A stretch of DNA of 64,000 bases, taken from positions 1,550,001 through 1,614,000 of the forward strand of contig NC_134028.1 in the NCBI RefSeq assembly GCF_964204645.1, given 5' to 3'. The notes under the pieces were generated by a model. That model saw only the letters and a program-made list of their open reading frames with translations. It made no database searches and was not told the origin of the DNA. Of the stretch, positions 3,001 to 35,700 are shown one piece after another; position 1 is the stretch's first letter, and every line of letters begins with the position of its first letter. This stretch comes from Tubulanus polymorphus (Eukaryota; Animalia; Nemertea). Position numbers and translations under genes: made by a program.

Positions 3001-5641
3001 ACTGACCGCTATCCCGGTCCCCAGGTGGCTGATTGGCAATAAAACTTTGAAAACGTCGTTGACATAATCCCATCTTGAAGGTGTGATTGTGTTTATGATA
3101 ATACATTATTATCCGAAAAAAAATCCGATTTTCGATCCTCGTTTCACCTAAAAGTATGTAATCTTTTTATAACCCGAGTTTATAAATACTTTCACAAACA
3201 TGTTCTCTCCAGATATACAAAGCTCAAAGTCATTAGGAAATTCTATATTTCCATTTAACTAGAAACATTTACTTATCGTGGAAAATTATAACGATAGATT
3301 TATAGAAGTGAAGAAAAGCTGTCATGAAGATATTTATTGATAAGATTAGTTAAAGCTGAGTATTATAGATGTGGGTTTTTAAATGGCAGCTCATGTTATT
3401 AAGCAAGTTTCTGTTAACAAAGTTACATCGCACATGGATACGTGAAGAGATACGATGCATTTCTCGACACGTTTCAGATTGATATCGAACCCAATTTCTT
3501 CACCGCGTGCGGGTAATGCCTGCGGTGGCGCGACGGACCTCTTATTAAATCGGCGTGATGCTTGAAAACGAGCTCGCTAATTAAATCTTAGTGAGCCCCT
3601 TTATACGTTAACTGCGCCGGACGGCTAAAGTTGATTAGAAACGTGGAAAAAACGCCGACGAAGCATTTATCTAGTGACTCAGTTCGTGTTAACTTGTTAC
3701 AAGCCGTCGTAGTAACACCTTCACTTCCATCAGATTATATCTAGCTTGGGAATGGACGTCGTTAACTTTCGAATATCAGGAATTATAACATATCAAATAA
3801 ATATTTGAGTGATGTTTTCAGAAGAAAATCTTGTAGATTTAGAATTTAATATCGATCGTGGAGAGCTATCATTAATTTCAGTTTAAATAAAATAGTTATG
3901 TATGAATATAGGTTTATAAGCGAAAATATGAAATAATGCCAGAAAATTGCATAATAGGTTTTGCTTTGTATAGAAACTGATGTATAATAGATAGAGAAAG
4001 GGATTCGAAATCGGAATTCCACCATCACGAGAAACCAATTACTCAACTATTACCGTAATTTCCTAGCAGTCATTTGAGAAATGTTTCTACAACTGTTATT
4101 CGCCAGTTGTTTGATACGTTTCATCCCTGTATATTGGAGAAGCGGCATTATTTACGCCTGAGAATACCTTTAAACACGTTCGCAAAACTGATTTAACGCC
4201 CGAGAACCTGTGAAAAACAAATCGCTCTCGAGTTGCAGCTATAGGTTGCTCGTCATATTTTTTCTTCGTTTTTTTGTGCGATATTTAAATATTTGTTTCC
4301 GTTTTCGATTTCCTTCGAATAGAACATCTGAACAAAAGCCATGACTCAAGAAATTGAAACATGAAATAGATATTATCAGGATTTCGAAAAAAAAACAACT
4401 TTTAGCGATATCTGGGTGTAGTTCTTTAAGGAATGTTCGCACGTCACAATTAGTGACGTCATAAACGTGAATTTATCTTCTGAGATGTGCTGGTGCTATA
4501 GAAGAAATATCTGTAAAACTTTATTGCAGTTTTTTTTTGCTGTTTGTTATAGACAGTAATGAGAGGGGGAATAATTAACGTGATTTGTGTTGCTCCGCTG
4601 AAATTAAACGTATTGCTAGACAAAATCAACATGCTTCTCTATAGGCGCATTCTTACCAGGAAAATGTGTCTAACAACCATGGATGTATAAACTCTAGTTT
4701 ACACGTCCATGATCCGAGCGAAAAAAAATATGTTTTTAGACATAATTCGTCTCTGGTTTCATATTATTGATACATGGTTTATGACTAAATATGAGTAATT
4801 TACAATTCAAGCAATTCAATATATATTACTCTAAATTCCTAATATAGGAAATAATATTGTGGTCTCATGTCACGGTATATTTGGATTGTATTTTAGTCGA
4901 CTGATACATATATAGAACTAAATTCAGTGACTGTGCACAAAGATTATTGGATCGCTAATAAATCTTAAAGCTTGAGATTTGAGAATAAAAATGATTATAT
5001 GTCTCATCATAAGCCATAAACCATTGTGTATTTACGATTGCATCGGTATCAAAATTGTGCTTATATATGCTTTGTTTTTTTTATCCAAGGTAGATGAAAG
5101 GTGGAAAGGGAAAGATGGGGTTGAATTCATTTAAATACATGTTTTTGATTTTATTTTGCTGCCCCACCACATCACTGCAAATACAATACTTACTCTATGC
5201 TTAATATTGTAACTGTGGAACAAGGAAGCTTATGGTCATGTTTGCTTATAACCTTTTCTTTTTACGTATTTAAACACAAATGATTGTTTGTGTATCCTAA
5301 TGTATTGTCAATACGGATGGACGAGTTAATGTTGTTTGAGACACTGGTGGCTTGCTAGTTCACATGTTGGTACAGGCTTTGGCAATATATATATTTTCAA
5401 ATATATCATATTACGCACTTGCTCACTCGAAACTCATGGGTGCCTATCTTGGTGGTGTCGGATTTTGTACACATCATATTACTTCGTGCTGAAACTAATA
5501 CTAACTAAAATTGGGACGAAGGCATCGGAGAAAATGTCCACTATCGGTCACGATGACGAAATCGTAAGATTCGGAGATTTCCAATTCTAACACGCCTAAC
5601 ACGCTATCTAATTGGCAACTGTTTTCTTTGTATACTTTCAG

Positions 5642-5830
5642 CTTGTAACTGTAACCTGCACGCCAGACAGTGTCGCTTCAATCCGGAATTATACAAACTG
5701 TCTGGCAACAAGAGTGGTGGGGTATGTTTAAAGTGTAGACATGACACTGCCGGGCGCAATTGCCACTACTGTAAACAGGGCTTTTATAGGGACCCCACAA
5801 AGCCTCTGACAGACCGCAAGGTCTGCAAAG
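5642..5830 (+). CDS. netrin: Netrin LE-2 exon, copy A (not in the ORF track)
   Basis: tttcag|CTTGTAAC...TGCAAAG|gtagg; 189 nt; [63 protein letters not shown]; open frame, all 8 Cys kept. Confidence 0.92.
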
Positions 5831-8800
5831 GTAGGAAAACCATTTTACATTTTATTACAACTCTTTTTTATTTACAGCTTGTAACTGCAACTTGCATGCT
5901 CGAAATTGCCGGTTCAATACAGAGCTCTTCCTGCTCTCGGGGCGAAAAAGTGGCGGAGTTTGTCTTAAATGCAAGCATAATACGGCCGGTCGCCACTGTC
6001 ACTACTGTGTAGAGGGATATTACCGCGATCCTACTAAACCCATCACTCACAGAAAAGCTTGCAAAGGTAGGACGAATATTCCTTACAATACGCACCATCA
6101 ACCCAACCGCTCGCGACGATCCGTTTTTTATTCCTCTCTCCTCCGCTCTGTCCCAAGCGATCGATTTGTTTTCCCATCTTGCGGATGTGTTGCTTTTATC
6201 TCTGCATCTCTCTATATCTTATCGGTTATCAAGTATAGATAGCTATTATCGATGTTGTCCTAGGTGTTCGCCAACCTCTGTAGAGAAAGGCTCTTATAAT
6301 CTTACTTACATTTCGTCAACCGACAGAATCTTCACGTAGAGAACCCAGCAAGGTTTCGCCACGTTCACTCGACTCTACTTTACACTTTGGCTGTTTGCCG
6401 ATTACCTGGATAGGTTTTTTATCTTCGAAAATAATTGAATCATTGAGATGGACCCATTGTCGGGAGAGGCAATAATCATCATCTTTACGTAGGTTCCGGT
6501 TCAACAACAAGCGTTTTGAGTACGCCTTTCGTATTTTCCGATAACACACTCGGCGAGCGTGCATATCCCCGTATCTAATTCCTGCGCGTTCTTTGATAGA
6601 AATTGCAACGTTCATTACGTAAATGATAAGCGCAGGTGAGCGGTTCACCTCTGACCCAGACAATTATTTTAGCGTGAAAACGTGGTAGGCGGTATATGAG
6701 TTAAAAACGTGCACTGGCGCAGTTTTCTGATGACGAATTTACAGAGTTGCAAAAAAAGTCAGTTAGTGTTAATACGTTCTTCGAGTATAAGGAGAGATGG
6801 TGGCGGCTTAGAATTCACGTGATGGATGAAATGACTCTTTTCTCGCCGTTGGAAATACTTCATGTATTTTCTCAACTCATACGAATTTATTTCAAATTTA
6901 TTCACTTCTGCAGCTTTCAAATGGAAAATTATGATCTCCAATCCTGGACAAGCGTCCGATGATTAAATCTTACACAGTTAGGATTAAGTGTAGGTATAAC
7001 CATTTAGGATCTGCTGCATAGAAAGATCGTCGGAGCAACTAATGAAGCTAACCACCTAATTATATTGTCCTGTTGTCCTTGTTTCCACCGGGGTTTTGAT
7101 TGGATAGTTTTCGTCCGACAAATTAAGAGATCTCGTACGCGGTATAGACTGGTGCGTCGAGATGGCGACCTTGACATTGGCGTATGTACGAGAGCTTTGA
7201 TGAACTATCGGCTGGCCAGGTCATTATCCGACGATTTAATTATCTACATCGAAAGTGTGGTGTGTTAACTTCGTTACGTGTGAGAAGTGGCGGAAAACGT
7301 GTCTACAAGACGTAGAACTACATCAGCTCAGATGGAGAACGTTTCAGTCGACGGCTCGGAAGATAAATCATTCAAATAGGTCTAGAGCTCATCAAAAACC
7401 CGCGCGGCGCATTTATTTCAATCTCTACCTTGCGCTTAACGTGTATACTCGACGAGTTAAAAACGTGGAAACGGCACTAATGAGTTATTGGGTTCAACTT
7501 GGTATCGAAAATAAAACGGAAATATTGTCTATAAGTGAACAATGTCAAGGTTATTGGATATCAGCCCTGTGTAAACCCCCGTGGTTCAAAGATCAATCGT
7601 GGAATATCCCAAAAAAATACCAAGATCTCATCGCTTCCGATACTTGATTCGTCGATACTTTTCATATAGAATTTTGGAACTTGTTTTCATATCGCCATAA
7701 ACTTTATCGGCGGCATCTCCTCATCAAAATGAACTTATCGCCGCCTTGAATAAACCAATCAGCGAGTTATACCCGTTCGAATGAGGTTTCGATACAGTAT
7801 CTTCTTCGTTCTAGGTTCCCCGTTTAAATTTCCGATTCAGTCAATGCACCGGATTTCGCGTTCATCAGTTCAAAAGTAATGCATTTTGTGGATTTCTGTT
7901 AACGCTATCATCGGCAAGCAATTATTGAATAACGGAACCAATTTTCACGTCGAACGAAGCGATAGCTTACGGCGAGACGTTACTTCAACCATATCTTCTC
8001 GCACTTTCTCTTCTCTCTCTCCCTCTCTCTCTCTCTCTTTATACGCTTCAGCTGATGTGATCACACGATCCGATGCAGTTTTACCAAGTTTCTTGCCACC
8101 GGCAACAGATATATTCCTAAAGACCGGACTTGTGTCCAATTCCCTGCTGAAGACATTCGTTCGTCGTCATTCAATCAGAAATTCTCATCTTTCGCAAGCT
8201 TGTTCCGCGGGTTAATTGCATTTTCATTCTTATGTATAGGTTTTTTTCGTACCTTCTTGCTTCCGCGTTAGGACGCTATCCGATTGACACGAACCAATCA
8301 GCGCTCTTCTACGAAATATAAAATTCAAACCCTATCCATATGAAAGATTACCCCGAAAAAGGAATGAGTCGTAAATAAGGTTCGTTCCGAGAAATCGCGA
8401 CAATTTGCTGTCGTTTTTATGCCTACTTATATAAGGTCTGCTATAACGAGAATTTTCATATGCACGGAGGAGTTTGGTTTTCCTATACTCGGAGGGGATA
8501 CGAGATCAGACAACTTTATCACACATGAGAACACCCGTTTGATATCTTCTGGTTCACATGAAACGCGAATTTCCAATATCGAACTGCAGGGGTATTCATG
8601 TGCGGGGACAGTTTACATATAAACAGCGTTCAGGCAGACTCATATCTAGCGTAAGAGTGACTATTACTAGGCAAATAAATTTCCTGTTTCGCTGTTTCGA
8701 TGAATAACGATCGCCGCGCTATTTCCTATGTTCATCGATAAATATCTGATAAATCGTCGGCAAGCGAAGGAAACGATCTGTCTCATCTACCTATCGGCGA

Positions 8801-11800
8801 TAGGCTGTATACCTGACCAGAATGAGAGTATCCTCTAGCGAGCTTCGATATAAACATGCATCTCTCAAAAGGGTTTTGACGTATCCAAAAAGCGTATTTG
8901 TAGCGACATATCCTCTTGGAAATGAGTGCGTGTATCGACGTTTCTCTTGTAGAATTTGATTTCAAATTAGAATATATTTCTAATCTACTGGTCTTCATTT
9001 CATACAGATCAATCATTAAAGTGTCAATATCCAATTAGAACTATCACAAACTTATGATTTGATGACAGAAAATCAATCCACAAAAATAAGAATAAACTTC
9101 TTATTTTGAAATCTTTTTCAAATATTTAATCCTTAAGAATTTTGAAAACGTATTTTCATTTTCCCAAACAACAATCGTACCGTACAAACAAGAACCGAAA
9201 TGTTTGTTAATCGAAATGTTTGTTTTGATTTGAAGAGAACAAACCTGACCAGTATATCGACAATAACAACGTGTATATATAAATGCAAGTATCATTTGAG
9301 TTTACGAAATTGATCTTTTCTCGAAATTTATCTATCGGCACGTATTTGTTTTCTGAAGATCACAATAAACCGAATTCGAGATATCTCGATTCGTTGGTAA
9401 ATATCTAAATATTGCGAGCATGTTTCGTTTAGACGCAGAAAAAGGGATTCAATAACACTCGAATATTCTTTGAAAGTTTAGTGATATATGTCAAAGGCTC
9501 TTGTTCGACAGAAAACTGTTCACTTCCAGCGTGCACGTGTGCGCATTTTCACAGACGATTCTCTTGACATGGATTTTCAGATTCTTCCATTTTCTAGCAC
9601 AATGGATGATCTCCATCTGGCCCTGCACTCCATATATATACATGAAGTCCTCTGTATTTACACCGAATCACATGGACACATCAACGTCTATATTTTTCCT
9701 CATCAATTCGCATCGAAAGAAAGATGTTGTGAATTCACAATTCAAACATTGTAGTTACGTTTGAATATTGAATAAGAAACATAGGAATCTTTTAACTGAA
9801 ATTATATCAACCAGTCCTTCCTTCGCGATCAGCGATATGGAAAATATATGGGAAGATTATCTATAAATGGAATTACAAAACCTGTTGTGTTTTCTGTTTT
9901 TATTTCCTTCCACGAAAAGAAACGATCAATCTCCGTGATAAAGTGGACTCGGATATACGGAACTGTTTCCGGTGGAAAGACAAGTCGCTCGCAATCGTCA
10001 GAAATCAAATTACCAACTTGAACATCAGTTTATATTAACTTCCGACGCTTGAAGACACATTCCTGCGCAGGGGTTTAACACTAGTGATGACTCAATGCCA
10101 CTTCTGTCAGGAAAATAGTCTCGATGTGGCTAATTTTGTCACCGTCGTCTAGAATTCCTCAGGAAAAACCGATGATTCACGGATAAATTGCTTTTATCTT
10201 AATAATGAACAATTTGCAGGATTTTCGATACGGGTAATTCAACAACAAAAAGGGGAAATCATCGTATTTCTGACTTCTGAGTGGAATGGACATTTCTAGT
10301 GGCATTTCTATTAGTAACTGCGGGCACGGGGAAGAACAGCTTCGCGAAGTTTTGTTGTATCGGTGAAAGGTCACGGGGCCTACCGCAGAAAATTTACATA
10401 CCGAATAGTGATTGGTTTATACATTTCTTGCATGACTTTCTTAAAGATATTTCGCCTATTCATATGCAATTCAAGCGGGAATATACACAGTCTTCATGGG
10501 TGAGCTGTGTGTCTCAATCACAATAGTGGCCTCCTATAAAAATGACTGACTTAGATTAATCGGCTACATACAATAATAAACTCGTCGCTGACAGTAATGC
10601 AATTCAAACGCCTCGAAATCCGTGAGTCACAAAAGCATATCACTAAAAGAATGTAGTCGAATTCAGCCGATATTCTCTTTGTGCCCGCGCGGTTCTCGCT
10701 ACAAAAGCAATTTTCTACATCAACACGGATAATAGCGGTTACAAATAAAATGGCGTTTATGCCAAATTTGACCTGATCACCTGCGACCATGACGGCTCGC
10801 CCTCAGCCGGTATACGGCTTTGTGAAGAGGTAACGCGCAGTTATGTTGTTACGTCTTGTGTTCGCGTCTTGATAACGATCTACACGTAGTATATTTTCCA
10901 TTCAGTTTCAATTGCGTGGAAAATTGATCAGCAAGCTTTAATGCGTTATTATAATGCTGAAATATGTTCACTTGCGATTCGTGTACTCAGATTTTTATTA
11001 TGTGTTTTTTTTTCGGGAACTCGAAATTGCTATACGAAACAAACACTTCATTCACACTTTCAACAAAATGACCAATGGCGTCGTCTCCAATACATTAAAA
11101 AAACTAAATCTTTCAAAAACGTACACTAACACATTTAGTTTTATGAATTAGCACAATTTCTATTCATTGCTATACTTAATTCACTCGGGAAATGTAAAGT
11201 AGCCGTGTAGTACAAATTGATTGAAAAAACAATTCGGTCAAAAATGCGTCATTTTCTTCTGTGATAACACATAATTTGTGAACAAAATATTAAGATGTCA
11301 ATATCTTTAAAGGCCGTGTGTGCAAAATACAACAACAAAGAAAATTCTCACTCTTTTCGGCGTGAAAGATACCCCATACTCTTACATTACATTTAGCGTA
11401 TATTTGAATCGACACGGAAAAATTCTTTTTACGAAAATAAAATAAAATTTGAGTTTCAACTTTCTAAATCATCGGATTTTACCGTCTTATTACGAGTCTA
11501 TATAACGCGGTACAATGCATTTATCACTCCGACTTGTGTGCATTTAGATAAGAACACATCCACATTGAAGAACGACCACTTTTATGAATGCAGGTGATAA
11601 TCTTATAATATATGTTTATATCTATGGATAATATTTCAGCTTGTGACTGTCACCCGGTCGGAGCATTAGGTAAAGCGTGCAACCAAACATCTGGACAATG
11701 CCCGTGTAAAGACGGTGTTACTGGTTTGACCTGTAACCGATGCGCGAAGGGATACCAACAGAGCCTGTCACGAATTGCGCCCTGTATCAGTAAGTTCATG

Positions 11801-14800
11801 TTTTATTTGCTTATGTAGTTTTTTTTTAAAATGATTCTATCATGTCATTAATTTTTGTCCGTACGTTTGAGATTGAATTGTGTAAATGTTGTCTTTTCTG
11901 GTCAAGCAAAATATTCGTCGATAAAAAATGAATATATATATATATATATATGTGTTTATATACTTATTTGTCCATATATAGAAAATTAATCTCTCATACT
12001 TTATCTTATATAGTATATTCACGATAATTTATCTAATATGATATTTAGCTTAAACTACATATCGTGCAAATGTAAATATTTCTATTCTGCGAAAAAAAAT
12101 CTCGAAAACGATAGTAAGTCTACAAATAATGGCGAAGTATTTATGCATGTATTGTGAAGTATACGCCAACCAAAATCACGTAGGTTTTCTCCGTCATTAG
12201 AAGCCACGTATATGAAACGAACTTCCCTTATTCTGGCGATGAAATCCGCAGAGATTCGCGAGGAGTACGACGCGCAATCGGCTTCAACGCAGAGTGTGAA
12301 CCCGACCGTGTAATATCAGTGCGGTTGATCAATGACTGCAACAATCAACGGCACTGAATTGCGACGGTAACGAGCGCCTAATGAACGGTGTAAGAACTCA
12401 GTAACCAGTTATCCGATCTTCAGTCGAACGTCGACCAAATTACACACCTACTTTGTAGTTAAGTCCATCGTTCGGTGACGCGAAATTTACAGATGATCAT
12501 AATCGACCTCCGGACGTGTCTATACATCGAATTCCTCGTGCCTGTTACTAGCGACACAAAGTCGAGCATATTCATGAAAGTGAATATATAAATGTATATA
12601 TGTATTTGCTGATTATCCCTGGGGATGGGGGGCATTTTGTGAAACGGAAAAAAATAATGTGCTACGCTTAAAGTCCTAACACGAAATGATGTATATCAAT
12701 TCAAAAACCAGAGCCATCTCGGAATGATGTGGAATTCGTACGTACCACTTTAAGAACTGTGTATTGCGATACAACTCATCATCGGTTTTCTCAATTTATG
12801 CTTCGAGGAGAGCGACTTAACAAAAGCGAGTTCTTTGTCTCATAAAATATTTATATTCGCACGCCGCAAAAAGTGCCGTTCATTAAATCCGTCCGTACGA
12901 GAGTGCGATTGCCTTCGAGCACAACGGAATGGAGGATGAATTACGGTGCCGTTATCCCCTATAAATATGTAAATAACAAACAATCGACAAATGTTTCGGT
13001 AAATCTCCCTGGAGAAATTAATTTTATTTACGACTAAAGCGTCGGGATAATAAATACTGTCCAACGGACAGATTGTCACTCAGCCACCTCGTTTATCGCT
13101 CTGATTACCGGAAAACTTATATATAACTCTGGTCTGGTTGTTAATTATTCGCGCAGACGTAGTATTTTGTCTTAGCTATACGTAATCTGTAATTAGATTA
13201 CGGGGTTGATTTACACACCACGAATTCCCCCCGAGAACTGACAAAACAACTCAGTCAACGATAGGCCAATAACGCGTGATTATTTCAATTTCTAAAAATA
13301 ACAGCCATTCTATCGGCTCAAAAAAGGTCCAAAGATTATACGATAAGTATGAAATATGCCCAGTCAAGATTTCGCTATTACATAGGTTTTAGCTGGCATT
13401 TTGACAGATACATCTGTCGGTTTTATTTGAAAATACAGAATATCAAGCGTCATCCTTTTACAGAAGCTGCCGACCCTAATTCTTCCTCTGAACAGGGAAT
13501 AGTTTTCAGAGAGAGCGACCCCACAAGTTAGTATGACAGGCATGCCTTTATTTAATTCATGGCGTTTATGGCGACTTCCTATCCATCCATACGCGCACGT
13601 TTCGGATCCTTTTGACTACTAAGGTTTTTAAGGAAACCTCACGAAGCCGTTCCACGATTCACTCAAAAATGAATACACTTCATTGAATCTGCTAGTTTTA
13701 TTAGATAGTCGACTAAACAAAGCTTTAGTTACCGTCGTAAAAGAAGGAATGAATAAAAATAAGTGCCGTTTGCATGGCGTTATAGAAGCCATCGGGCTCT
13801 AACAAATTGCATGTGTCATCATTTGATGGATATAACATCGACGTGAATGGTGCATGACTGACAGAAATTGACCACCCCATATCTACCCCATCACGTTTAT
13901 ACCTTTTCTGATATGTTAAAGTAACATGAATTAACCAGAAAATATTCCGATTCTATTAAAGAGATTTATCTATGTTAATGTTTCATCATAAGTAACTTAT
14001 TTCAAACGTTGTGAAATAAAGTGAAGATTAACGGATCTTTTACATACGACTAAAGTCATTACGTTTGAAATAAGCAACAAAAATGCTTATTCATATTTTT
14101 CTCTCATTGGTATTTTTGTGTATTTTTTCGTGATAATGCGTAATTATTGGGTGTTTGATATTGATTTCTGAGAATTCCTTGTATGTCCTTTACAGAACGA
14201 CCTATCAGTGTACCGAAGGGCCCTAGCGTAACCGACAACGCATCTACGTACACAGGTATGCGCAAAAAGACAAATGAACAAAAATTTATTTTATGAAACT
14301 TTATAAACTTTTGAAAAGTTTTTTGTAACCATTATAGAAATTCTAAGAACTAGAAATAACTAAGAGTTTCTGGCTGACTCTCCAGACTGCACCTATACTA
14401 TTTGATTAAATGTTATGTAGTAGAATTACCTTAAGTAATATTACAATTTTCAGCTAAATCTTGTGGAAAATGTAAGAAAAATAGCCGTAAAGCAACGCTC
14501 AGAAAGTATTGCCGTCGAAACTATGGTAAGTCAAATCTAAAATCTATGATTGTATCAATATGTTGATTTTATCTAATTCTAATATTTTGTTAAGCAAATG
14601 AATACAGTATTTTATGTGATGTAAAAGATTGTTAGTTATGAAATCAGCGCGGTTTTTCATCGCGAAATAGTTCATTATGAAATTAGCGCGCGAATTTTTT
14701 GCTTTAAAGAGATTTCGTCCACAATATGTTCATTACCGAATTAAATCTCGAATACGTCTTCAAAAGTGACGGAACATATATTATAAAGAGCGCCGATACT

Positions 14801-21258: not shown

Positions 21259-22029
21259 AGTGGAAGCTTTCTTCAACTTCGAGTGGGTGACTTCTGGATT
21301 GGAGTCAGAGATAGGTGACGTTAGTAACCTGGTAACCTGCTACTAGTGGCTGGAATTGGGAGATAAGATAGGCATTTAATTTGGCCTAATCAATACTAAA
21401 ATAGAAGTTGCAATAACTTGCAAAGTGATTAAGACGACGTGTGTCCATGATCTGATTTGATTTATTGTGAAAAAAAGATATACCGTAAAAACTGCACTGA
21501 ATAAACGACGAATGTTCCAATCTTAATTCATTTATTGGCAAAACTGTTTAGCAGCGGGTGTACGTGTTCCTAGAGATATATTTACCCTACACGAAGTTTG
21601 GAGTTTTCTGGGAATTTTTGGAGCTGGTGTTTTCTAATTTCGGGATTCGAGCCTGATTATTGCGACCAATTCAATTCAATAGTGTGGAGCGCGTGGTTCG
21701 AATTCCGGCATGGCGGGGCGCTGCTGTAATATTATTATGTTTTAGATAGATTTTAAACGGTGCTAGTTAGAAAATGGACCATTTTAAGAACGTGACCACC
21801 TAAATGTTTAGTTGCCCCGCGGTACTCCTGCCGGGAGGGCTCTTGTCGTTACACGCGTGGGTAGCCAGTGACTCGCTCATCGGGACCCTCCTCTTTCCTC
21901 GCACCACAACTTTACCGATCACATGACGGGAAGTGTTTACTTTTATTACATGCAAACGCAGGAAAAGTTCGCAAGTTTTCACATGAAGTTGAGTTGGCAG
22001 TGGTTCGGGTGTGATTGAGTAGCGGCACA
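21259..22029. promoter_or_regulatory. Head-to-head STX8/fringe promoter interval (771 bp between ATGs)
   Basis: Divergent start codons at 21258 (-) and 22030 (+); contains CCAAT (~21666), a GC box GGCGGGGCG (~21712) and an ETS-like GGAAGTG (~21929). TSSs are not determined. Confidence 0.55.
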
Positions 22030-25000
22030 ATGCGTCATAGGTTGAACAAGATAATTCGATTGACAATTAGCGTCGTTTCTATGATGTGCTGTTTATTAAT
22101 AGTTGCGCAAGTTGGAAATCTGGAGGAATCTGATAATAATAATTTACGATTGATTATCGATCGCTCGGGGGCTGGAATACCCGAGACTATCGTTAAGAAA
22201 ACCGTCAGTGAAAATCATGATGACAGCTCGTATAGGAATTTCGTCCGTCGAACTTTACAAAAAACGGAGCGAAACGGCACGAAGCTGTATTATTACGTTA
22301 AAGTGAGAAGAAAAATACCAGCAGCGGCTAAACTTCGTCTCGACCATCCGAACAACCGCATTCCTCTGACAGCTACCACCAGACCGACAGAAATATCGGA
22401 TTTATTCATCAGTGTGAAAACGACTAAGAAATATCACCGAGAACGTTTAGATGTCATATTGAATACTTGGTTTAAACTCGCTAGAGAACAGGTAGGCAGG
22501 CTATAATAACCTACAAAAATTACCGTAATTTCTATAAAATAGAATAATTGGGTCTCTGATTATAGTGGTATTCTAGTATGTATGTATGTATGCCCTACTC
22601 TACTGGTGGCGCGTAATGTTCTAGGGTTTTAGTGCTAGAACTGTTATTGTGAAAAACTATGACAATCAGGCGTTAGTTAATAGTAGGACACTATATAATG
22701 AGGAATGTTGTGAATATCATTATTAACGGTTTAACAACTGTAGACCTTTTATTATAGTGAGACAATGTAATTGGTATCTAAATTATTGTCAATTGATTTA
22801 ATGAGAGAAACAGAATTTCCAGTCGTTTCTCGTGACTAGCGATTCACAGATAAAACGACTATAACTTTAGGCAATGTCAGTAAAGATATGAATAGCATAC
22901 ACTGCGTAAACAAATTTTCAAAAACTTGAATCTTCTCGTACACTGCCCCTGCTGGCAATAGCTCTATATATTTTCAATGATAATTCACGCTCTATTCTTA
23001 ACGTCTTATTTCGAGTTTCGTTTGAGCTAAAAATAAGCGTTCTAACCGCCGACCGACCGGTACCTGTGTGGGAAGCTGGCTAGTCTCATTGTACCATAAA
23101 AAAACGTCTTAGCCTACATTGTGACACATCTTGTATCGAAAACTATTCTTTCCCTTTTCAATAGAAGCCTTTTCTGATTTTGCACCTGCATCTTTATTCA
23201 ACGACTCCCAATTCATGTCGGCGCCGTGCGATATATTTTTAACCGTTTAAAATTTTAGGTCAGAGACCGTGATTTGAAAAACTTCTTTTCTTCGCGCGAT
23301 GCAACAGGTCTGTGAGCATTTCTCACCCCGATCAGAATGAAAATTAACTACATTTATCTGACATCAGAAATTACTATTATTTTTGCCACACAGTCAATTT
23401 CGATTAGACTTGTTTTTATAACTGGTCCCCTCTTGTTGATTCAGCAGTTTACCGTTAAGTATATATAAACATTGCTATGTTGCTCTGGTCTCTGCGCCTT
23501 CGAGTGTTTTTTGAAGATATGATTTCACTGGAAACACATACAAATAACGCGCGCACCAACTCGATCAAGGTAGAGAATACCACGCCATGCTTAACATTGT
23601 CTGACATCATTAAATGGCCCAGTTCCCACAGACAGCTACAAACATCAGCGCTGAGTCTAGTTCTATTATCAAAATGATCAGATTTTAGGGCCCATAACTT
23701 TCTTGGAAATATGATTTTAAAGTTTTATAAAATAAGCTGAGAATATCGATGTCAGAGTTACCGTTTCTGATAGGTATCGAAGGAAGCTTCATTTTTTGTC
23801 AAATATCTGGGAAATATAGATGCCGGGCAGGTGTTCGACAGTAGTTCAGCTGCGGGACACCCTGAGGTCACACGAGAAATTCCAACGGTTGGTTACAATC
23901 GCAAAAAACCACTTATCTGTGTGTGGTGCTATGCTATGAAAAACTCGTTTTGAATAAATAGTGCGAGGATTGCCTATTATAGTTTTGAGGATCCTTCTTA
24001 TCCTTATCGTATGAATTATCAGTTGTCAAGTGTGTTGACACTTGTCATATCTGATTCACAATTATTGTTGCTAAGGGCTTCGTCATTTATCGGTTAGAGA
24101 GGCAGTTTCCCTTTTTCTCATGAATAGACCTGCCCAGCGTATCACAGATGATCTTCAAATACTCAAACTGTTTCTGTGTACTTTTTGGTTGAAGGGCCCT
24201 GATGACCGCATTCATAGTTTGGATAAATGATCGGAACCATATTGAAAGAATGTTATGTTTTTATATTTTGTAGACACATTTCTTCACAGACTCTGATGAT
24301 CATGAATACCAAATGAAAACAAGTAAGCTAATCATTAGTCTATCAATGTCTTTAGAATGGAAGTTGCCAGTTGATCTTGTAAGGATAAAATACTGCTTAT
24401 ACAGTGGAACCTCGTGACGATTTATCAGTTATTACAAACCTAGAATTTCTCTCCTAATATGACAATTTTAATCATTTCAAAATGGATACGACAAACTATC
24501 GGTAAAAACAATAGATTTGCTGGTCTCGTGAAGTTTGGTGTTGTAAGAAGTGAAGTTTGGTGTTGTAACAAGCCACCGCTGTATTATGTGTGTATTTACT
24601 GCATCTATAGCAGAAATCTACATTTTGATGGGGGATAAAATGAACCACTGTGAGGAAGATACTGTATGGGAAAAAGTTCCCACAGCCACTCACTACCGGG
24701 GGGGGGGGGGGGGATCGGTGATCTATAACAAACTGATAGCAGGTAAAAACTGTGAAACAGATAAACAATGATTCACGACTAGAAACATTGAGGCTTTTAT
24801 TTCACTGATTTGGGAAACTTAGTCATTTATTTGTACTAATCTCATCCGAGTTTTCAAACAAACCGATAAAAAACCAGGAAAAAGTTGATAGCTTATTCGG
24901 CAGGCTATACAAATTTCCATGACTGAACTATTTACCAATAGGAAAATGTAGTACCAGACGAAAATAGTTTGTCCTAGTTTTTTTTGGGCACTCTACACGT

Positions 25001-28000
25001 TTCAAGCGCAGGCGACCGAAGTTGAAGAGGTTCCAAGCCCTAAAAAAGAATAAAAGTTTAGCCTATTTTTTCCTAGGTGATTTTTCTCATGACCTGCACC
25101 TCGTGTATGCCGGTTGATTTTGAACTCATGTGTTCACTGTAGATACTTGGCTGTCAGTAATGATGTTAATCCTTTATCTGTTCAACATCAGCAGCTCATT
25201 TTCACTTCTAACTGATAATAATGAGAAGCATATGCGGAGCAAACCTTTTGTAATGAGATACAAACTGAAGTCAGTGAGATTTTGTTGCTGGTGATGATGG
25301 ATCATTCAATAGTGTGTGATACTGTGTGATCTATGGAGTTCCTTTCAAGACAAGCTCTACTCTCTCAATCCTGTGTCTTATTATTGAGCCTACAGGCTTT
25401 TACTTGTAATCCATTCATAGCCTGGATTCTATTGACTGTTAATATCCGGTCACCAGAATGACCATTGTATCCGGATTAACCCTAAAGCTATAGGCAAAAG
25501 GACAGGATAGGAATCAAAGCATGGACTCTCTAACGTTTTGGGGTACATGATCTAAAGGAACATAGAACTAGCCATGATGCACATGAAGCGCGATGCACAC
25601 AACGCAGAAACAGGAGACCGAAACATTTTGTTGAGTGACTGTGTTTACGAAAAATGAGAAACATGGTTTCGGGAACAACATATATATGAGATCAAACATG
25701 TTTGTTTCCGTGTGCCGTGTGCTTTGGGCTGAGGGAAAACTCATACTATACGCTGGGATCAGTGTCCCTCTGATAATCTATTTTCACGCACCCTGTAATA
25801 AACCTAGTTACCTAGCTAGTTATCAGGTTTCACTAGTATGTGAGGTAAATCATTGTTGACAGGGTCTGTCTTCTGCTACTGTATAACTGGTGATAAACTA
25901 ATAAAATCAGCTATGCTGTAATTAGGTGCTGATAACGCTATATTTATATAGAAAACACATTGATGAAAAGAAGCCTCTTCCATAGAAACATTTGTAGCAC
26001 TGTTGGGGGCTGGTTATATTTGCAGTTTAGTCAACCAACCTTGTTACCAAAATAGTTTCCATCATCCCCTGGTCATAGATTTGCATATTATTATCATGCT
26101 ACTGACCACCAGACAAACTGACATTACACGTGTTCCTTTAATCATAGAATTAATATTTTTATTTTCAGATGGCCGTATGATAAATACAAATTGTAGTGCA
26201 AGCCATAACAGGTACGTTAAGCGGGCCGCCAGGGTTTTTCATCGATCATTTTGATAATCTTCTAATCGTTGATCGTCTGAAGGTGGACACAAGTTTTCCA
26301 CAAAGATAACTTGATATCCGCTGACCTGAAAAATTCTCATTTATTAGTCTACAAGGCTCAGTCACTTTGTTATATGTCAATCAGTTATTATGATTTACAT
26401 CAAATGATTTACTTGTCGTTTTCTGTGGTATATTCGCTATTCAACTCAAATATAATAGCTTATTGTATCCTTGCCGGAGGTCAGAGCAGGAAAGTGTGGG
26501 AATGCATTTTATCGTTCAGCTTCTCGGCAGTTTACGGAGAGCTAATGAGGAGTGCGATGGGGGAGGACAGGCACTTCATACGGCAGTAAACATGAATATC
26601 GAATCAAAACTCGCCTAAACAGGGACTTTGTATCATTTTCCAAGAAAAGCTATGAATTTTCAAGTTGTGGTACGAGTATTAGTCAGATTTTCTCTACATA
26701 TTATCTTTAAACGATGATAGAGCCGGTTTTTACGGGAAATTCCTTCACACTATTTCCTCGCTCGATGCTGCCATCTATCGTCGGTTGAGCGAACCACAAG
26801 CATTCTAAAAAACTAATCGTCACGTTCATTTTCAGAAAGGACCTGTGTTGTAAGATGTCTGCTGAATACGACAAGTTTATTTCTTCCAATAAAAGGTAAA
26901 CTGATTTATGTAATTATAATTTTAAACTCCAATTACAAAAAAGTAAACTAAGTCTCTTTGCTGTCACAATTTGTATAACATGTTATAATACATTTTTTGT
27001 ATATATTTTCAGGTGGTTTTGTCATGTTGATGATGACACATATGTAAACATACCACGGTTGGTAAATGTATTACGTAAATACAACGATTCTAAACCGTGG
27101 TACATTGGAAAACCAAGTCTGAACCACCCGATTGAAACAGCTAATACCGACTTACCCGGTGTAAATATCTATTTCATTATCACCTAAAATTGATGTAATC
27201 AATTAAGAAAATCTATCCGACTGAAAATGAATGTGAATAATTTTTTTTTAAATTTCAGCATAAATTTCTGTTTTGGTTTGCGACAGGAGGAGCTGGTTTC
27301 TGTTTGAGTCGGGCCCTCGCTCTAGCAATGCTGCCCTACAGCGGGTAAGCTTGTCTGATAGCTGGACTTTAAAAATTTGAAAATACAGTGAAAAACAATG
27401 TTTGTATACCGGTATTTCAATTTGCTTCTCTTCTTCCAGAGGCGGAAAATTCCAGAGTGTTTGCAACAAAATTCGTTTGCCCGATGACTGCAGTATTGGT
27501 TACATAATTAGTAAGTATTCATCTCTGAAGACAAATGGTTCTGATTATTTCCATCATATCAGGATAATCATTGATTCAAATGATTTCTCATTTCAGCTCA
27601 ATATCTCAAAGTTGATTTAACTGTAGAAAAAGATTTTCATTCTCATCTCGAAGGCCTCGCACTTCTCAACCCGACGAGGCTTCACCAATATGTATGTAGC
27701 GATTAATTGTCATTGATTTGAGAAAATCTAGTTGTATGAAATATTTTTAGTTTTTTGTTTGTGTTGATCGTTTTGATTTCAGATAACATTAAGTTATTCT
27801 CCGAGTGGTGGGAGGCCTAACGTGATAAATATTCCCGGATTTCCTTTTAAGGATGATCCAACAAGGTATTTATTTTTACTTGTATTATATATTTGGAACC
27901 CTGAATAGAATAAGAAATGATTTTTAGAAAGTTTTCATTTCATAATTTTACAGGTTTTATTCGATTCATTGTAAGCTGTTTCCACATCTAAAATCCTGTC

Positions 28001-28377: not shown

Positions 28378-29708
28378 TAACTGTCTGTTTTGATATTGAA
28401 TTGATAAATTTTGCCGGTATAAATCGATTGCTATTTTGCTCAAAATTCGAAGCTATTTATCAGTTTAAACTGCGGTAAAATTGACATGTGCAATGTACGA
28501 TAAACATGTATGATGAATATTTAGATCATACTCGACAGGTTTGCCTTGAGGGAAATGGATTTGTTTTCTGGGAAGGAAACGTGGAGAATAAAATATTTCA
28601 AATATTTTTGCCCGCTGTGTTCTGTTCAAAAATGAACAATTAAACATGAAGTTTGATAACTGTACTCAGTTTGGTGCATCGGTGGCTGTATAAGATACAT
28701 ATCCACTACAGTAGCCTTTAGAAAATAAAATATAAGAGATACTTAGAATTTGATAATTTAGATAATGACAGAATTGATTTCAGTGCCTTAAAAGGTTGAT
28801 TTTGATATGAGAGCGATTAGTATAATTCTGAAGTTAGTACTCAAGTACTGTTGAGGGATAAATCAGATTTCGAATATAATACTCCCTTTAAACAACTTTA
28901 CAAAGATTTCCTATAGTTAGATAGATATACCAATAAGTAAATGCATTAATGAAATCGGATTTCAGTTCAACTTTGAACAATAATCTTGGACTGTTTATTA
29001 TTTGGGGGGATTATGTATTATAATGTGTACAGACAATTATAAGGCTTTATATAGAGATTTGGTGGTCGTTATTGAACTCATACAAGTCAGCCAGTGAAAA
29101 GCTTTGTGAACAGTCGGCCAAATAAGTCTTCATATTGAAGCACAGTGATATAGAATATGAAAATTTCCAGGGATTTGAAGTGTTCTAATTGAAATTTTCT
29201 GATTATTCTGGAATATTGCTGACTGATTCAGGATACCCTCGTTATATATTCACTGGAATCGTTGTTGCTCAAATTGTAAAATAATGTACTTAAACAACTG
29301 TGATGCTTAGCTTATTGCTAGCTTTTTATGTGCCTTTGTTATTTTATGTAGAGTGTAGCAGGATTTGAGTTCTTTGTATTTTCTTAACGTATATATGAAT
29401 TACCACTTTGCTTTTTACGCTTAAAATCTTTTTTGGGGGATATGCCTCCTGTATATAAGTTCAATATTTCATTTCTTCTGAATTCCCGCTTATTAAGTCA
29501 TAGTTTGATTTTTGCAAGTTATTTTTGGTGAATTTGAGTTCAATTTTTAGTTATCAGTTAGTTGTGTATTGAAGATTTGAAGTTAATGAAACTGTGGTTA
29601 TGCCTGTTCAGGAGGATTCGTTTCAATGTTCGTTTTAGTGTTTGCTGAGTCAATATTGACTCGATGTGCCATTCTTTGAAAGTGTTCTGGAAATGATTTA
29701 TGATTGAA

Positions 29709-29714
29709 AATAAA
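29709..29714 (+). other. Probable fringe polyadenylation signal
   Basis: AATAAA followed by a T/GT-rich tract at the end of a T-rich, 3'UTR-like 1.7 kb stretch. Confidence 0.4.
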
Positions 29715-29946
29715 AAATTTTATTGTTTTACATATATATTGTGAACTTTGTTTGTTATTTGCTGCCCTTTTTGGCTGATACCGTTTTGCTCAACTTGAGT
29801 CATTTTCTGACATGCCGCCGCGAGTCTCCAGTATCGAACCAGTATAACGGCATGACAGAATATGGTGGCACTTGTGGAGCGGCAAGCTGTGGCTCACAAA
29901 TGAGGAATTTGCTAAAATTACTACGATTAGTTAGCAAGACTCCATG

Positions 29947-30112
29947 CATCCTCCCACGGCAGGGATTCGAACATGATTGCATCGCTACACAGCTCGGCAC
30001 AAACCGTACCGTGGCTAGACTGGTTAGCGGTCTCTATCTTCGGGACAGGCAACCAGTCTATACCGTGGCAATCTCGATGCCATCAGGTTCGAATCCCTCC
30101 CTGGGGAGGATG
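29947..30112. mobile_element. MITE, CATC...GATG family with B-box-like TIRs (copy 1)
   Basis: catcctcccacggcagggattcgaacatgattgcatcg pairs with cgatgccatcaggttcgaatccctccctggggaggatg; inner IR tagactggtt/aaccagtcta; TIRs nearly identical to those at 36219-36557; no clear TSD. Confidence 0.75.
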
Positions 30113-30299
30113 GGCAAAAATCCTTTACCTTTCAAATTCAAGTGAAGAGCTCGTGGTGATTTCAGCGTCTAAATCCAACAAACGATACATCAATGAAGCA
30201 CAATATCTTATATTTTGTTCCTAACCAGATTCATCAAAATGAACGTATTCTGAGCTTATGAGAGCAAAATTTGCAGGAAAATGGATGCGTGAATGAATT

Positions 30300-32745: not shown

Positions 32746-35700
32746 ATGTATGGCGCCGTGCAACGTGTGCTGTTTGTAGGGGTCGCATGTGGTTTACGTC
32801 GCTCTTCCTACCACCGCTCACTGCGACCGTCGTCCATCCTGAGGAGATTGTCGTCCGATTATTGCACTAAAATGTCAGCTCCATTCTCAATCGTCGAGCG
32901 CGGAACTCCGTACAGTCTAGAATATCGTGTATTTTTTAGTAAGTCATTTAGAAGGTGCGGGTAGATCTAGAGTGCATGGGACGGGTGCAGTAGAAGAGGG
33001 TCACACGAAATAATCTTGTTCGGGCCCGTTCGTTTTATCGCTCTGATGATATGGTGTCTGTCACTCTTCACATTTTAATCTTGTTTCGAATTCTAAATTT
33101 AGTCCTAGGCCTACCTTCCACGACCACACTTTGGTGTTTATGTCATGTTTATTTTAGATTCTAAAGGGTTATGTTGAGGTTTAAGGGACCCTTGACTGCA
33201 GTTGCTGAGGTGGATATTTGTTAAATGGAATTATTCTTGTAATTGCTTTTTTGTCTTTTTGATCAGCTACGTGAATGCCTTCATCTGACTTACAAAAACT
33301 GTTAGAAATACAACAATTAGGCCTAACAATCACTAGTAAACAGCTAGATACTAGAGGGAATTCAGAAGCTTCTCACTTGCTCGGTAGAACGAACTATACC
33401 TTTTCCCCAGTTCAACCAGTTAAGATTGGACTTGGTGTTAAATATTAATCGAAAATTTTACTCAAAACCGAGAAGTCATAGAGAGAATGACATAAAACAA
33501 GGAATTATGGAACTGGCATGTACTTCCCAATACCCCATTAATTATTACCATAGTGATATCATCACAGAATATAATAGTAATGGTGTATCAGTACTGAAAA
33601 GCTTGATGTATCACAAACGTGGCTTAATGACTTCCAGTAATAGATGTAATAATGAATCAATGTACGGCTATTGATGACTGTAATAACTAGATTTATTCAG
33701 TGAGTGAGAGAGACAGAGATGTAGTATTAATGAGATCTGAGTTGAGGTGATAATTAAAACATACCTTTAATAGGCACTGAATAATTTATACACAGTCAGT
33801 CATCAGTTGATGAAGGAAATCACGTTTTTCGAATATTTGTATCTGTGATGGCTTTTGATTGGCTGCTGACCATTTTGTTGGAAATTTTATATTAGAAATG
33901 AATGAGCTATAAGTTCATGATATTTAAAGAATGTTCATTTTAAGTGCAATATTGTCTGGGGGTAGGTAGGGGCTGTTTTCCTCGATGTGCCAGTTCAGAA
34001 CCAGTTTGAAAAGAAATGAGCACGCCGACATGAAATGAAATGGTCCCAGTTAGACAAGTTTCTTAAAGAATAAATTATTCATAGTCTGTTCGATGATTTT
34101 TCAGAGGATTCTCAAGATCGTATAATTTCTCCGTTCCACGATATTCCGCTATTCGCTGATAAAGAGAACAATGTTTTCAACATGGTCGTCGAAGTGCCGA
34201 GATGGTCGAATGCAAAAATGGAGGTTCGTTATAGTCCTTTCAGAAAATTTGATATCTCTCTCTCTCTCTCTGAGTCAGTAATGATGTTTGTTATAATTCT
34301 GGGGCTGGTTTTATAGATTGGTATTAACTTTAACCCTGGGTTTTCAATAGAGTTAACGCCTGGGTTAAAGTTGATACCAGTCTATAAAACCGACCCCTGG
34401 AATACTCTTCTGCCGGTGTTTTTATTTCGACCAGAATACACAGGCGACTTATCCCGCAATAGATCCATAAATGATCTTGAAATGGTTTAAACCCGTATGT
34501 AAAACTGGTTGGGTATTCTGTGGCACATTCTGTAGTCTTCCAGTGATACAAACTGTCAGCTCCAGTTGTGTTATCCATTTCATATCGCTTGAATGCATAT
34601 TGAAGTTATAGGCTGCGTAGCTTGCTTTGTTTACAATAATGCGTCTGCATTCATCATATTTTTGAACTGTACGCCATTTGTTTAGAAGATTTACTTGATA
34701 TTTTGTAGATCGCTACTAAAGACAAAATGAATCCAATCAAACAGGACGTAAAGAAAGGAAATTTACGCTTCGTGCGAAACTGTTTCCCGCATCACGGCTA
34801 TATATGGAATTACGGAGCTCTTCCGCAGGTATAGAATTTAATATGACTCGTACACCGTTTAAATTCACACGCGTTCAAGTTGCAAATTTACTTCGAATGA
34901 TTTTGATTCGTTTTGATAATCCTTTTCAGACGTGGGAAGATCCGGAAAGGACCGATTCTCATACGCAATGCAAGGGCGACAATGATCCATTAGATGTTTG
35001 CGAAATTGGTCAAAAAGTATGAATATATTATACCTTAGTCTTCTCGTGCAATTTGCTTATTGTGAATGAGATAGTGCAGATTATTTATTTAGAAATAATG
35101 GTTTAATTTTTGTGCTTCAGGTACACCCACGAGGAGCTGTTATTAAAGTAAAATTATTAGGCGCGATGGCTCTTATAGATGAAGGTAATTACTGAGAAAA
35201 ACAAAAAAACTTCATTGTATATGATATGCTGATTTCCTTCAATTTTGAGAAGGCATACAACAATGTATTTAACCCGGGAATCCCAATCACAAAAATCGCT
35301 TTAAGTGTACATTTATTTTCAGGTGAAACTGATTGGAAAATTATCGCGATAGATATAAACGATCCTTTAGCCAAGGATTTAAATGGTAAGAAAATCTTGT
35401 CCTCTTCGCTGCAACTTGGGTTTAAACACTATAAAATCCTTAATATTTATTCTATTCATTTTCGACGATATTAAGCAATTTATGCGTTATTTTTTCAAGG
35501 CGTCAATATACTTTCAAGTTAGCTTCTTGTTGAATAAAGTAGACTGTAAGACAAATCCCATCAAAATGATGCTGTCCACTTGGATATTGTTTCGTATCAT
35601 TTCAGATATCGAAGATGTAAAAAAAAATATGCCAGGATTTTTAAAAGTAAGTACAAGTTGAGTTTTAGTATGAGAATCGGTATGAAGTAATGTCCAGTTA

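Follow-up and report, generated by a model that had tools for sequence, protein, structure and literature searches.

Human netrin-1 (NTN1; PDB 4URT and 8SNP) and Caenorhabditis elegans UNC-6 (PDB 8EDK) consist of an LN domain, three LE repeats and a C-terminal NTR domain, and repulsive guidance is abolished in UNC-6 lacking EGF2 (PMC10871540). For human NTN1, the accessible part of PMC6408995 gives just two variant isoforms, one truncated by use of an internal promoter and one a predicted fragment. Duplicated exons spliced in a mutually exclusive way are a well-known device, and in the clusters associated with steric interference homologous exons of one length and phase, coding for the same structural region, stand side by side with a short distance from donor to branch point (Hatje et al. 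2017, PMC5740500). Here we analysed a window of 64,000 nucleotides (nt) from the nemertean Tubulanus polymorphus (GCF_964204645.1, contig NC_134028.1, positions 1,550,001 to 1,614,000 of the forward strand), which carries a netrin gene with two LE-2 exons in tandem, called copy A and copy B below. A and B are both intact, and each is spliced to LE-3. We consider it probable that they are used one at a time and have a single early spiralian origin, and we predict from their residues that the resulting isoforms differ in binding to UNC5 and heparan sulfate.

The translation of copy A is 100% identical to P0012, named by NCBI 'netrin-1-like isoform X2 [Tubulanus polymorphus]', which contains PF00055, PF00053/PF24973 and PF01759 and aligns end to end with other netrins. 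Its cluster has three members, isoforms X1 (P0122, 654 residues, copy B), X2 (P0012, 654 residues, copy A) and X3 (P0121, 633 residues, copy B); X1 and X2 differ in LE-2 alone, and X3 is without a 21-residue cassette. The best matches of P0122 were netrin-1-type proteins. Joining either LE-2 exon of the window to the downstream exons reproduced P0122 (with B) and P0012 (with A) exactly from LE-2 to the stop codon, and X3 (P0121) was likewise reproduced. Members of the netrin-1/UNC-6 family bind DCC/UNC-40 and UNC5. The gene has the architecture of this family, LN, three LE repeats and C-terminal NTR, and each Tubulanus isoform keeps it. No LN or LE-1 exon was found in the window by tblastn; the upstream exons lie outside it.

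Tandem LE-2 exons and their splicing

Exons A and B are each preceded by AG and followed by GT, are open in phase 1-1 and encode eight cysteines, and the spacer between them (5831-5877) is itself bounded by GT..AG. They are equal in length, share one phase and encode the same protein region, as mutually exclusive exons do. The original prediction, made from the sequence alone, had described two intact 189-nt phase 1-1 LE-2 exons with their own AG/GT sites, all cysteines and a 47-nt spacer; this description was confirmed, and every residue change that it had named was found in the two copies. Copies A and B are identical at 126 of 189 nt and encode the same residue in 48 of their 62 whole codons, which agrees with the 49 of 63 residues counted earlier once the split junction codon is included. 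The many synonymous differences then reported were also found, with 33 of the 48 same-residue codons differing in DNA. In the dN/dS-type comparison that had been suggested, the uncorrected proportion of synonymous differences (pS) was about 1.0, which is saturated, and that of nonsynonymous differences (pN) was 0.16. Because pS is near 1.0, pN is 0.16 and 33/48 same-residue codons differ in DNA, the copies are old and constrained. Copy B matched the LE-2 of solved netrin-1 with an E value of 6e-34.

A single contig of a second organism (organism B, run X5) holds both exons across 5588-6098. It shows 19 differences from Tubulanus over this interval, at least 15 of them located; the listed ones comprise four in A and six in B, all ten at synonymous third positions, and the spacer, with five substitutions and three single-base insertions, is 50 nt long. 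Purifying selection on both LE-2 copies is supported. Neither copy behaves as a never-included, neutrally evolving exon, a possibility considered in the original prediction: A and B are each spliced to LE-3, and the listed exon differences are all synonymous.

Six sequencing runs were examined. None is recorded as RNA, and run X2 was treated as RNA solely since its contigs skip GT..AG introns; runs X2, X3 and X4 are one sample, and assembled contigs drop rare forms. Spliced contigs of run X2 contain the joints 5830>11640 (A to LE-3) and 6066>11640 (B to LE-3), both across GT..AG introns, and LE-1 sequence was found immediately ahead of 5878, the LE-1 to B joint. These are three of the junctions that had been proposed as checks, and all were seen. 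In run X6, which is more divergent (23 differences over B), spliced sequence flanks B on either side, with LE-1 before it. The joint A>B (5830>5878) was absent from the complete list of contig joints over the exon pair, in which rare forms can be lost. Contig depths were 24.6 for A and 68.6 for B and were not used for ranking isoforms. Contigs of runs X3 and X4 begin at 5836 and span B and the intron unspliced, without A; no interpretation is placed on them. At its head the A to LE-3 contig carries 295 nt of upstream intron, which may derive from pre-mRNA spliced in part or from an internal start so far overlooked. We weighed a truncated netrin with an alternative first exon at ~5347, but the open frame of that exon has no in-frame ATG before A, and partly spliced pre-mRNA was preferred.

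Protein records point the same way. In 20 of 20 equal-length isoform pairs from 14 genera, picked because their LE-2 differed, the two proteins differ nowhere but in LE-2. Among the spiralian-type proteins listed from Logan in which LE-1 and LE-3 are joined, all 15 have a single LE-2: 12 are B-type (nine of them oyster-like), one is A-type and two are of a Dreissena/Ruditapes type. The proposal of two netrin isoforms through use of one or other LE-2 stands as far as both LE-3 joints and RefSeq X1/X2 are concerned, but the LE-1>A joint was not seen in the runs. We think it very likely that the A and B exons are used one at a time, with strict exclusivity in Tubulanus.

How exclusivity could arise is suggested by the spacer, which at 47 nt is probably too short for removal, so that a transcript would contain A or B, not both. 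Steric interference between mutually exclusive exons is expected where the donor lies less than 50 nt from the branch point (PMC5740500). Since the whole spacer is 47 nt, any branch point must lie within this distance, and the Tubulanus spacer falls under the limit by length alone, its branch point being unmapped. It is about half as long as the shortest of seven introns rebuilt in a nearby inorganic pyrophosphatase gene (87-485 nt), and every further netrin intron of the window measures at least 198 nt; the shortest constitutive intron of 78 nt in the original prediction was not reproduced. We regard steric interference as the fairly likely cause of exclusivity in Tubulanus. As a general explanation it does not fit every species, with spacers of up to 99-129 nt elsewhere. 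Spacers read from unspliced open reading frames (ORFs) ranged from 45 to 129 nt in a sample biased toward short, stop-free multiples of three, and longer spacers need another mechanism or permit co-inclusion. Retention of the Tubulanus spacer shifts the frame and A>B joining keeps it; because the A>B product stays in frame, nonsense-mediated decay is unable to enforce exclusivity. The sequence TACTTTCAG precedes A in 5 of 5 tandem loci. Donors of the form GTAGG follow 10/10 tandem copies and 0/51 single-copy loci (nominal Fisher p 1e-11, inflated since the loci are related), and mollusc-like read-through ORFs have other residues after the LE-2 exon, which weakens the generality of this donor. 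Alignment of the flanking introns of the five tandem loci revealed no conserved intronic element beyond the splice sites, and for this reason a docking-site/selector mechanism receives no support.

Age, residue signature and competing readings

The view of the pair as a peculiarity of the Tubulanus genome was not borne out. We found A and B in 22 named genera of six phyla (Nemertea, Brachiopoda, Annelida, Mollusca, Rotifera and Platyhelminthes), and the LE-2 comparison proposed earlier for dating the duplication returned the same pair, order and diagnostic residues in all six, which makes it ancient. Proteins that scored twice in the search with copy A turned out to contain two LE-2 copies. 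The 20 equal-length pairs came from Tubulanus, Lineus, Lingula, Owenia, three Haliotis, Littorina, Patella, Biomphalaria, two Mytilus, Crassostrea, two Magallana, Mizuhopecten, Argopecten and Pecten, with two in Rotaria socialis. In Ostrea both types are present in forms of unequal length, and models with two LE-2 in tandem add Pinctada, Tegillarca, Bradybaena, Plakobranchus, Adineta and Echinococcus. A metagenome scan for LE-2 kept 80 of 112 loci, 55 of which have an intron donor after LE-2; four of these 55 have A followed by B, with spacers of 49 (L002), 69 (L003), 76 (L006) and 57 nt (L007). P0307 (Hyalomma) was left aside: its second LE-2 is truncated, matches the first without a change over 36 residues and is probably an artefact of assembly or prediction.

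Leave-one-out profiles recovered the order of A and B in all 21 pairs for which it is known, with both copies on the correct side of zero in 20; several of these pairs are close kin, and the 21 are not independent tests. An LE-2 tree was built from 24 pairs and 11 outgroups over 62 columns, with 10 of 34 pairs and 9 of 20 outgroups omitted as near-duplicates or partial. In this tree 22 of the 24 B copies form one clade (99/92) that includes rotifer B, and the approximately unbiased (AU) test did not reject all B copies as one clade (p 0.061; weak, at 62 columns). We think it very likely that the pair arose once in an early spiralian ancestor, before the split of rotifers and lophotrochozoans. 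That split is placed more than 500 million years ago. In four A-type loci LE-3 follows without an intervening B (L048, L076, L078, and also L060, which resembles Dreissena), and losses of one copy in some lineages are likely from this arrangement. Single-LE-2 loci are of two types: A-like, with Q349 and N379 (L048, L076, L078), and a type with DSSRH as in gastropod B exons (L064, L065, L071-L074, L077, L079, L080), the latter with profile scores close to zero. The two types might go back to a gene duplication after which either gene retained a single LE-2 exon.

Residues were counted over 34 A/B pairs (30 rows for position 349 in A) and 20 outgroup rows in human numbering, which was set on the full-length chain 8SNP with the first LE-2 cysteine as residue 341. 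All 34 pairs keep the LE-2 cysteines and the frame. The conserved A/B signature, as judged from these alignments, is at positions 349, 354, 358 and 379. Q or K occupies 349 in 24/30 A copies and R in 25/34 B copies; at 354, M is found in 20/34 A and 0/34 B, with K or R in 27/34 B; at 358, L is found in 21/34 B and 0/34 A, and K in 11/34 A and 1/34 B; and 379 is N in 29/34 A and 1/34 B, and aromatic (H, F or Y) in 32/34 B. The outgroups have M354 in 18/20 and K358 in 15/20. D397 is commoner in B (12/34) than in A (3/34). The residue changes taken earlier as an isoform signature are present in Tubulanus, but SGRK>SGNK, HNT>HDT, THRK>TDRK and Y>F are local drift, not shared A/B features.

These positions can be compared with published binding surfaces. 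The loop-b helix of LE-2 contacts UNC5B Ig2, and the interface residues, chick R353, N355, K360 and R364, correspond to human 351, 353, 358 and 362; mutating the four together raised the UNC5B dissociation constant from 113 to 535 nM (PMC13759497). The same source states that mouse K358L lowers binding of the NP137 antibody and that a role of this residue in UNC5B binding was confirmed. Its peptide 355-366 anchors the numbering, with chick K360 at LE-2 position 18, which is L in most B exons. Tubulanus A keeps K358 and has lost R362, and Tubulanus B keeps R362 and has L358. The heparin residues are, in chick, R350, R351, R353, N355, R374, H375, K395, H399, R400 and K401 (PMC9984387); Tubulanus A lacks two of them (Q349, D397), and in B one is missing (N349) and R372 is replaced by K. 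Most known glycosaminoglycan (GAG) residues, at 348, 351, 353, 373, 393 and 398, are retained by A and B alike. AlphaFold models of the isolated copies, with a helix at 14-19 in both, were of low confidence (mean predicted local distance difference test scores 49 and 47) and were not used as evidence.

Because the signature coincides with the UNC5B and heparin surface, and EGF2 is needed for repulsion, our best guess is that the isoforms would differ in UNC5 and heparan-sulfate binding. In B the loop-b helix may have been retuned from an ancestral M354...K358 to K/R354...L358, which would shift the basic residue by one helical turn on the UNC5B-contacting surface, and A copies tend to lose R349 of the RRxR heparin motif together with H379. 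The outcome would be a graded change in UNC5 or heparan-sulfate affinity and not an on/off switch. The retuned helix appears to be the likeliest functional mechanism for the predicted difference, and we judge its prospects to be evenly balanced.

Several observations weigh against the reading of an ancient, exclusive pair with different binding. The LE-1>A joint was not seen in the runs and is taken from the RefSeq model and from A-type records in other species; the assembled contigs of one sample supply all spliced evidence for A, and the A to LE-3 contig of run X2 is unspliced over 5347-5641, keeping 295 nt of upstream intron. With spacers of 99-129 nt elsewhere, steric exclusion is incomplete as an explanation, and in eight genera (Pinctada, Tegillarca, Bradybaena, Plakobranchus, Magallana with one UniRef entry, Adineta, Rotaria and Echinococcus) there are models that join the two copies directly into a four-LE protein. 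In the tree, the B copies of Echinococcus and P0305 sit on long branches away from the B clade, the A copies are unresolved and do not form one clade, and the AU test, again weak at 62 columns, fails to reject Tubulanus A and B as sisters (p 0.126). On the side of function, K358 is kept in just 11/34 A copies and is lost in most molluscan A too, Tubulanus has P/T at 354, so that the helix swap is not clean, and B exceeds A in net charge by a mean of just 0.6 over 29 full pairs, with no difference in Tubulanus. Mutating the four LE-2 interface residues together reduces UNC5B affinity by just ~4.7-fold, and the structure was determined at 5.3 A (PMC13759497).

These points leave room for three other readings. 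The pair could be exclusive and ancient with isoforms that bind receptors alike, being kept through split regulation of expression or splicing, or through dimerisation, stability or another partner. We hold this to be possible and somewhat unlikely: there is no consistent charge difference between A and B, molluscs show a wide range of residues at 358 and 362, the two copies have most known GAG residues (348, 351, 353, 373, 393, 398) in common, and the A-type loci without B before LE-3 (L048, L076, L078; L060) indicate that one copy is apparently droppable, yet the copy-specific residues 354, 358 and 379 are common to rotifers and lophotrochozoans, which is unexpected under neutral redundancy, and two of the three lie on the UNC5B-contacting helix. 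It is also conceivable that A and B are independent cassettes and that a four-LE netrin exists as a true third form, at least in species whose introns are short or whose spacers are long. The frame is maintained on A>B joining, read-through ORFs contain the 99-129 nt spacers, Rotaria socialis has A-only, B-only (597 residues) and A+B (660 residues) models under neighbouring accessions, and both B-only and A+B models occur in Adineta and both A+B and A-only models in Echinococcus. However, two LE-2 repeats occur in no RefSeq 'isoform' record and in 0/15 of the listed Logan spliced proteins, no A>B joint is among the contig joints listed, and in Magallana RefSeq has separate A and B forms that one UniRef entry joins. 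Gene predictors often chain in-frame duplicate exons. We consider a genuine four-LE isoform unlikely.

Far less probable in our judgement are several independent origins with convergence, or a Tubulanus pair that is a recent duplication or an assembly artefact. The AU test leaves Tubulanus A and B as possible sisters, and N379 is also seen in nematodes and Ptychodera (4/20 outgroup rows). Set against this, synonymous sites between A and B are saturated, DNA contigs of two organisms span both copies, order and signatures agree in 21/21 pairs, the splice-site sequences TACTTTCAG and GGTAGG are common to four other loci, and position, order and signature are the same across six spiralian phyla. 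An ancient pair used one exon at a time, with isoforms predicted to differ in binding, is the reading that we retain.

Exon map and other features of the window

The exons of netrin in the window are collected in Table 1. An optional insert at the position of the 63-nt cassette was also found in isoforms of Lingula and scallops (13 residues), and probably in other molluscs, with NSS/NST sequons; the cassette may be a second conserved splice event in spiralian netrin besides the LE-2 pair, judging from these annotated proteins. Intronic blocks of netrin at ~920-1050, 1526-1664, 2364-2549, 3455-3692 and 8503-8742 align with organism B and their flanks do not, and these blocks are possible regulatory elements. 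LE-3 is entirely missing in annotated netrin isoforms of amphioxus, horseshoe crabs, spider and fish (P0443, P0455, P0456, P0432, P0232); netrin-1 without LE-3 turns monomeric (PMC13759497).

Downstream of netrin, the inorganic pyrophosphatase gene lies at ~34100-35995 on the plus strand. The gene at ~22015-27200 (+), also downstream, is a putative fringe-like glycosyltransferase, judging from motifs in its translation. At ~29700-30200 and 36200-36600, both strands carry several short segments that are related to one another and have similar translations (e.g. ~30100 and 36500), likely a dispersed repeat. On the minus strand, a TCF/pangolin gene has tandem exons for the first half of its high-mobility group (HMG) box at 50833-50644 and 50588-50399, of 190 nt each with the likeliest acceptor and separated by a 55-nt GT..AG spacer; they match the two alternative HMG exons of Platynereis Tcf (PMC5996498).

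Table 1 Netrin features of the window, with positions counted from its first nucleotide
Feature	Position	Strand	Basis or remark
Acceptor of exon A, TACTTTCAG	5633..5641	+	Same in 5/5 aligned tandem loci
LE-2 exon copy A, 189 nt, phase 1-1	5642..5830	+	Present in RefSeq isoform X2 (P0012)
47-nt spacer, donor GTAGGA, T-rich acceptor of B	5831..5877	+	Not divisible by three; splicing-out unseen in the runs examined
LE-2 exon copy B, 189 nt, phase 1-1, donor GTAGGA at 6067	5878..6066	+	In RefSeq isoforms X1 and X3 (P0122, P0121)
LE-3 exon, 150 nt, acceptor common to A and B	11640..11789	+	Spliced contigs, RefSeq protein match
63-nt cassette exon, LE-3 to NTR linker	13464..13526	+	In isoforms X1/X2; absent from isoform X3, skipped in run X2 contig
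Netrin linker exon	14196..14255	+	Spliced contigs, RefSeq match
Netrin exon, NTR domain start	14454..14525	+	Spliced contigs, RefSeq match
Last coding exon, NTR domain to stop codon	15966..16291	+	Spliced contigs, RefSeq match

Meaning and relation to known systems

The bifunctionality of netrin is usually ascribed to the receptors of the responding cell. Speculatively, the spiralian switch swaps the UNC5-contacting helix and thereby produces an UNC5-repulsion form and a form biased to DCC attraction or adhesion, a natural K358L. If this doubtful proposal were true, attraction and repulsion would also be set by the sending cell, throughout the history of Spiralia. A ligand-side exon swap in the repulsion domain, from rotifers to molluscs, would offer natural variants of the UNC5/heparan-sulfate surface and a second layer of control. 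In practice, netrin in situ hybridisation or RNA interference in annelids, molluscs, brachiopods, nemerteans and flatworms pools two proteins, and the four-LE netrin models of several genomes need checking. The exon pair is also a candidate shared molecular character of Spiralia.

In the literature covered, which includes planarian work and the accessible parts of the reviews PMC6408995 and PMC10084454, and from which most subscription papers and genome-paper supplements fall outside, no description of alternative netrin LE-2 exons was found. The isoforms are already in automated annotation; it is the homology, age and residue signature of the pair that appear undescribed. Relative to netrin-1/UNC-6, the Tubulanus LE-2 is ~80% identical, and the same 189-nt LE-2 exon is found in 55 genomic loci of other animals. 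The difference lies in copy number, as the listed members of the clusters inspected for Argiope, Branchiostoma, Limulus/Tachypleus and Amphiura show a single LE-2 sequence for each species, in a small sample. Netrin-G1 (NTNG1) resembles the Tubulanus gene in being alternatively spliced in the LE region (PMC6408995), but it does so by exon skipping and insertions, in contrast to the swap of duplicated homologous exons, and netrin-G is a separate vertebrate lineage that binds neither DCC nor UNC5 (PMC10084454). Platynereis Tcf, a developmental gene present as a single copy in this spiralian, also begins one of its functional domains with either of two alternative exons (PMC5996498). There the exons encode the DNA-binding domain of a transcription factor, whereas in netrin they encode the receptor-binding domain of a secreted ligand. 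In FGFR, with Ig-IIIb/IIIc, and in Dscam, exon switching acts on the receptor side; spiralian netrin switches the binding domain of the ligand.

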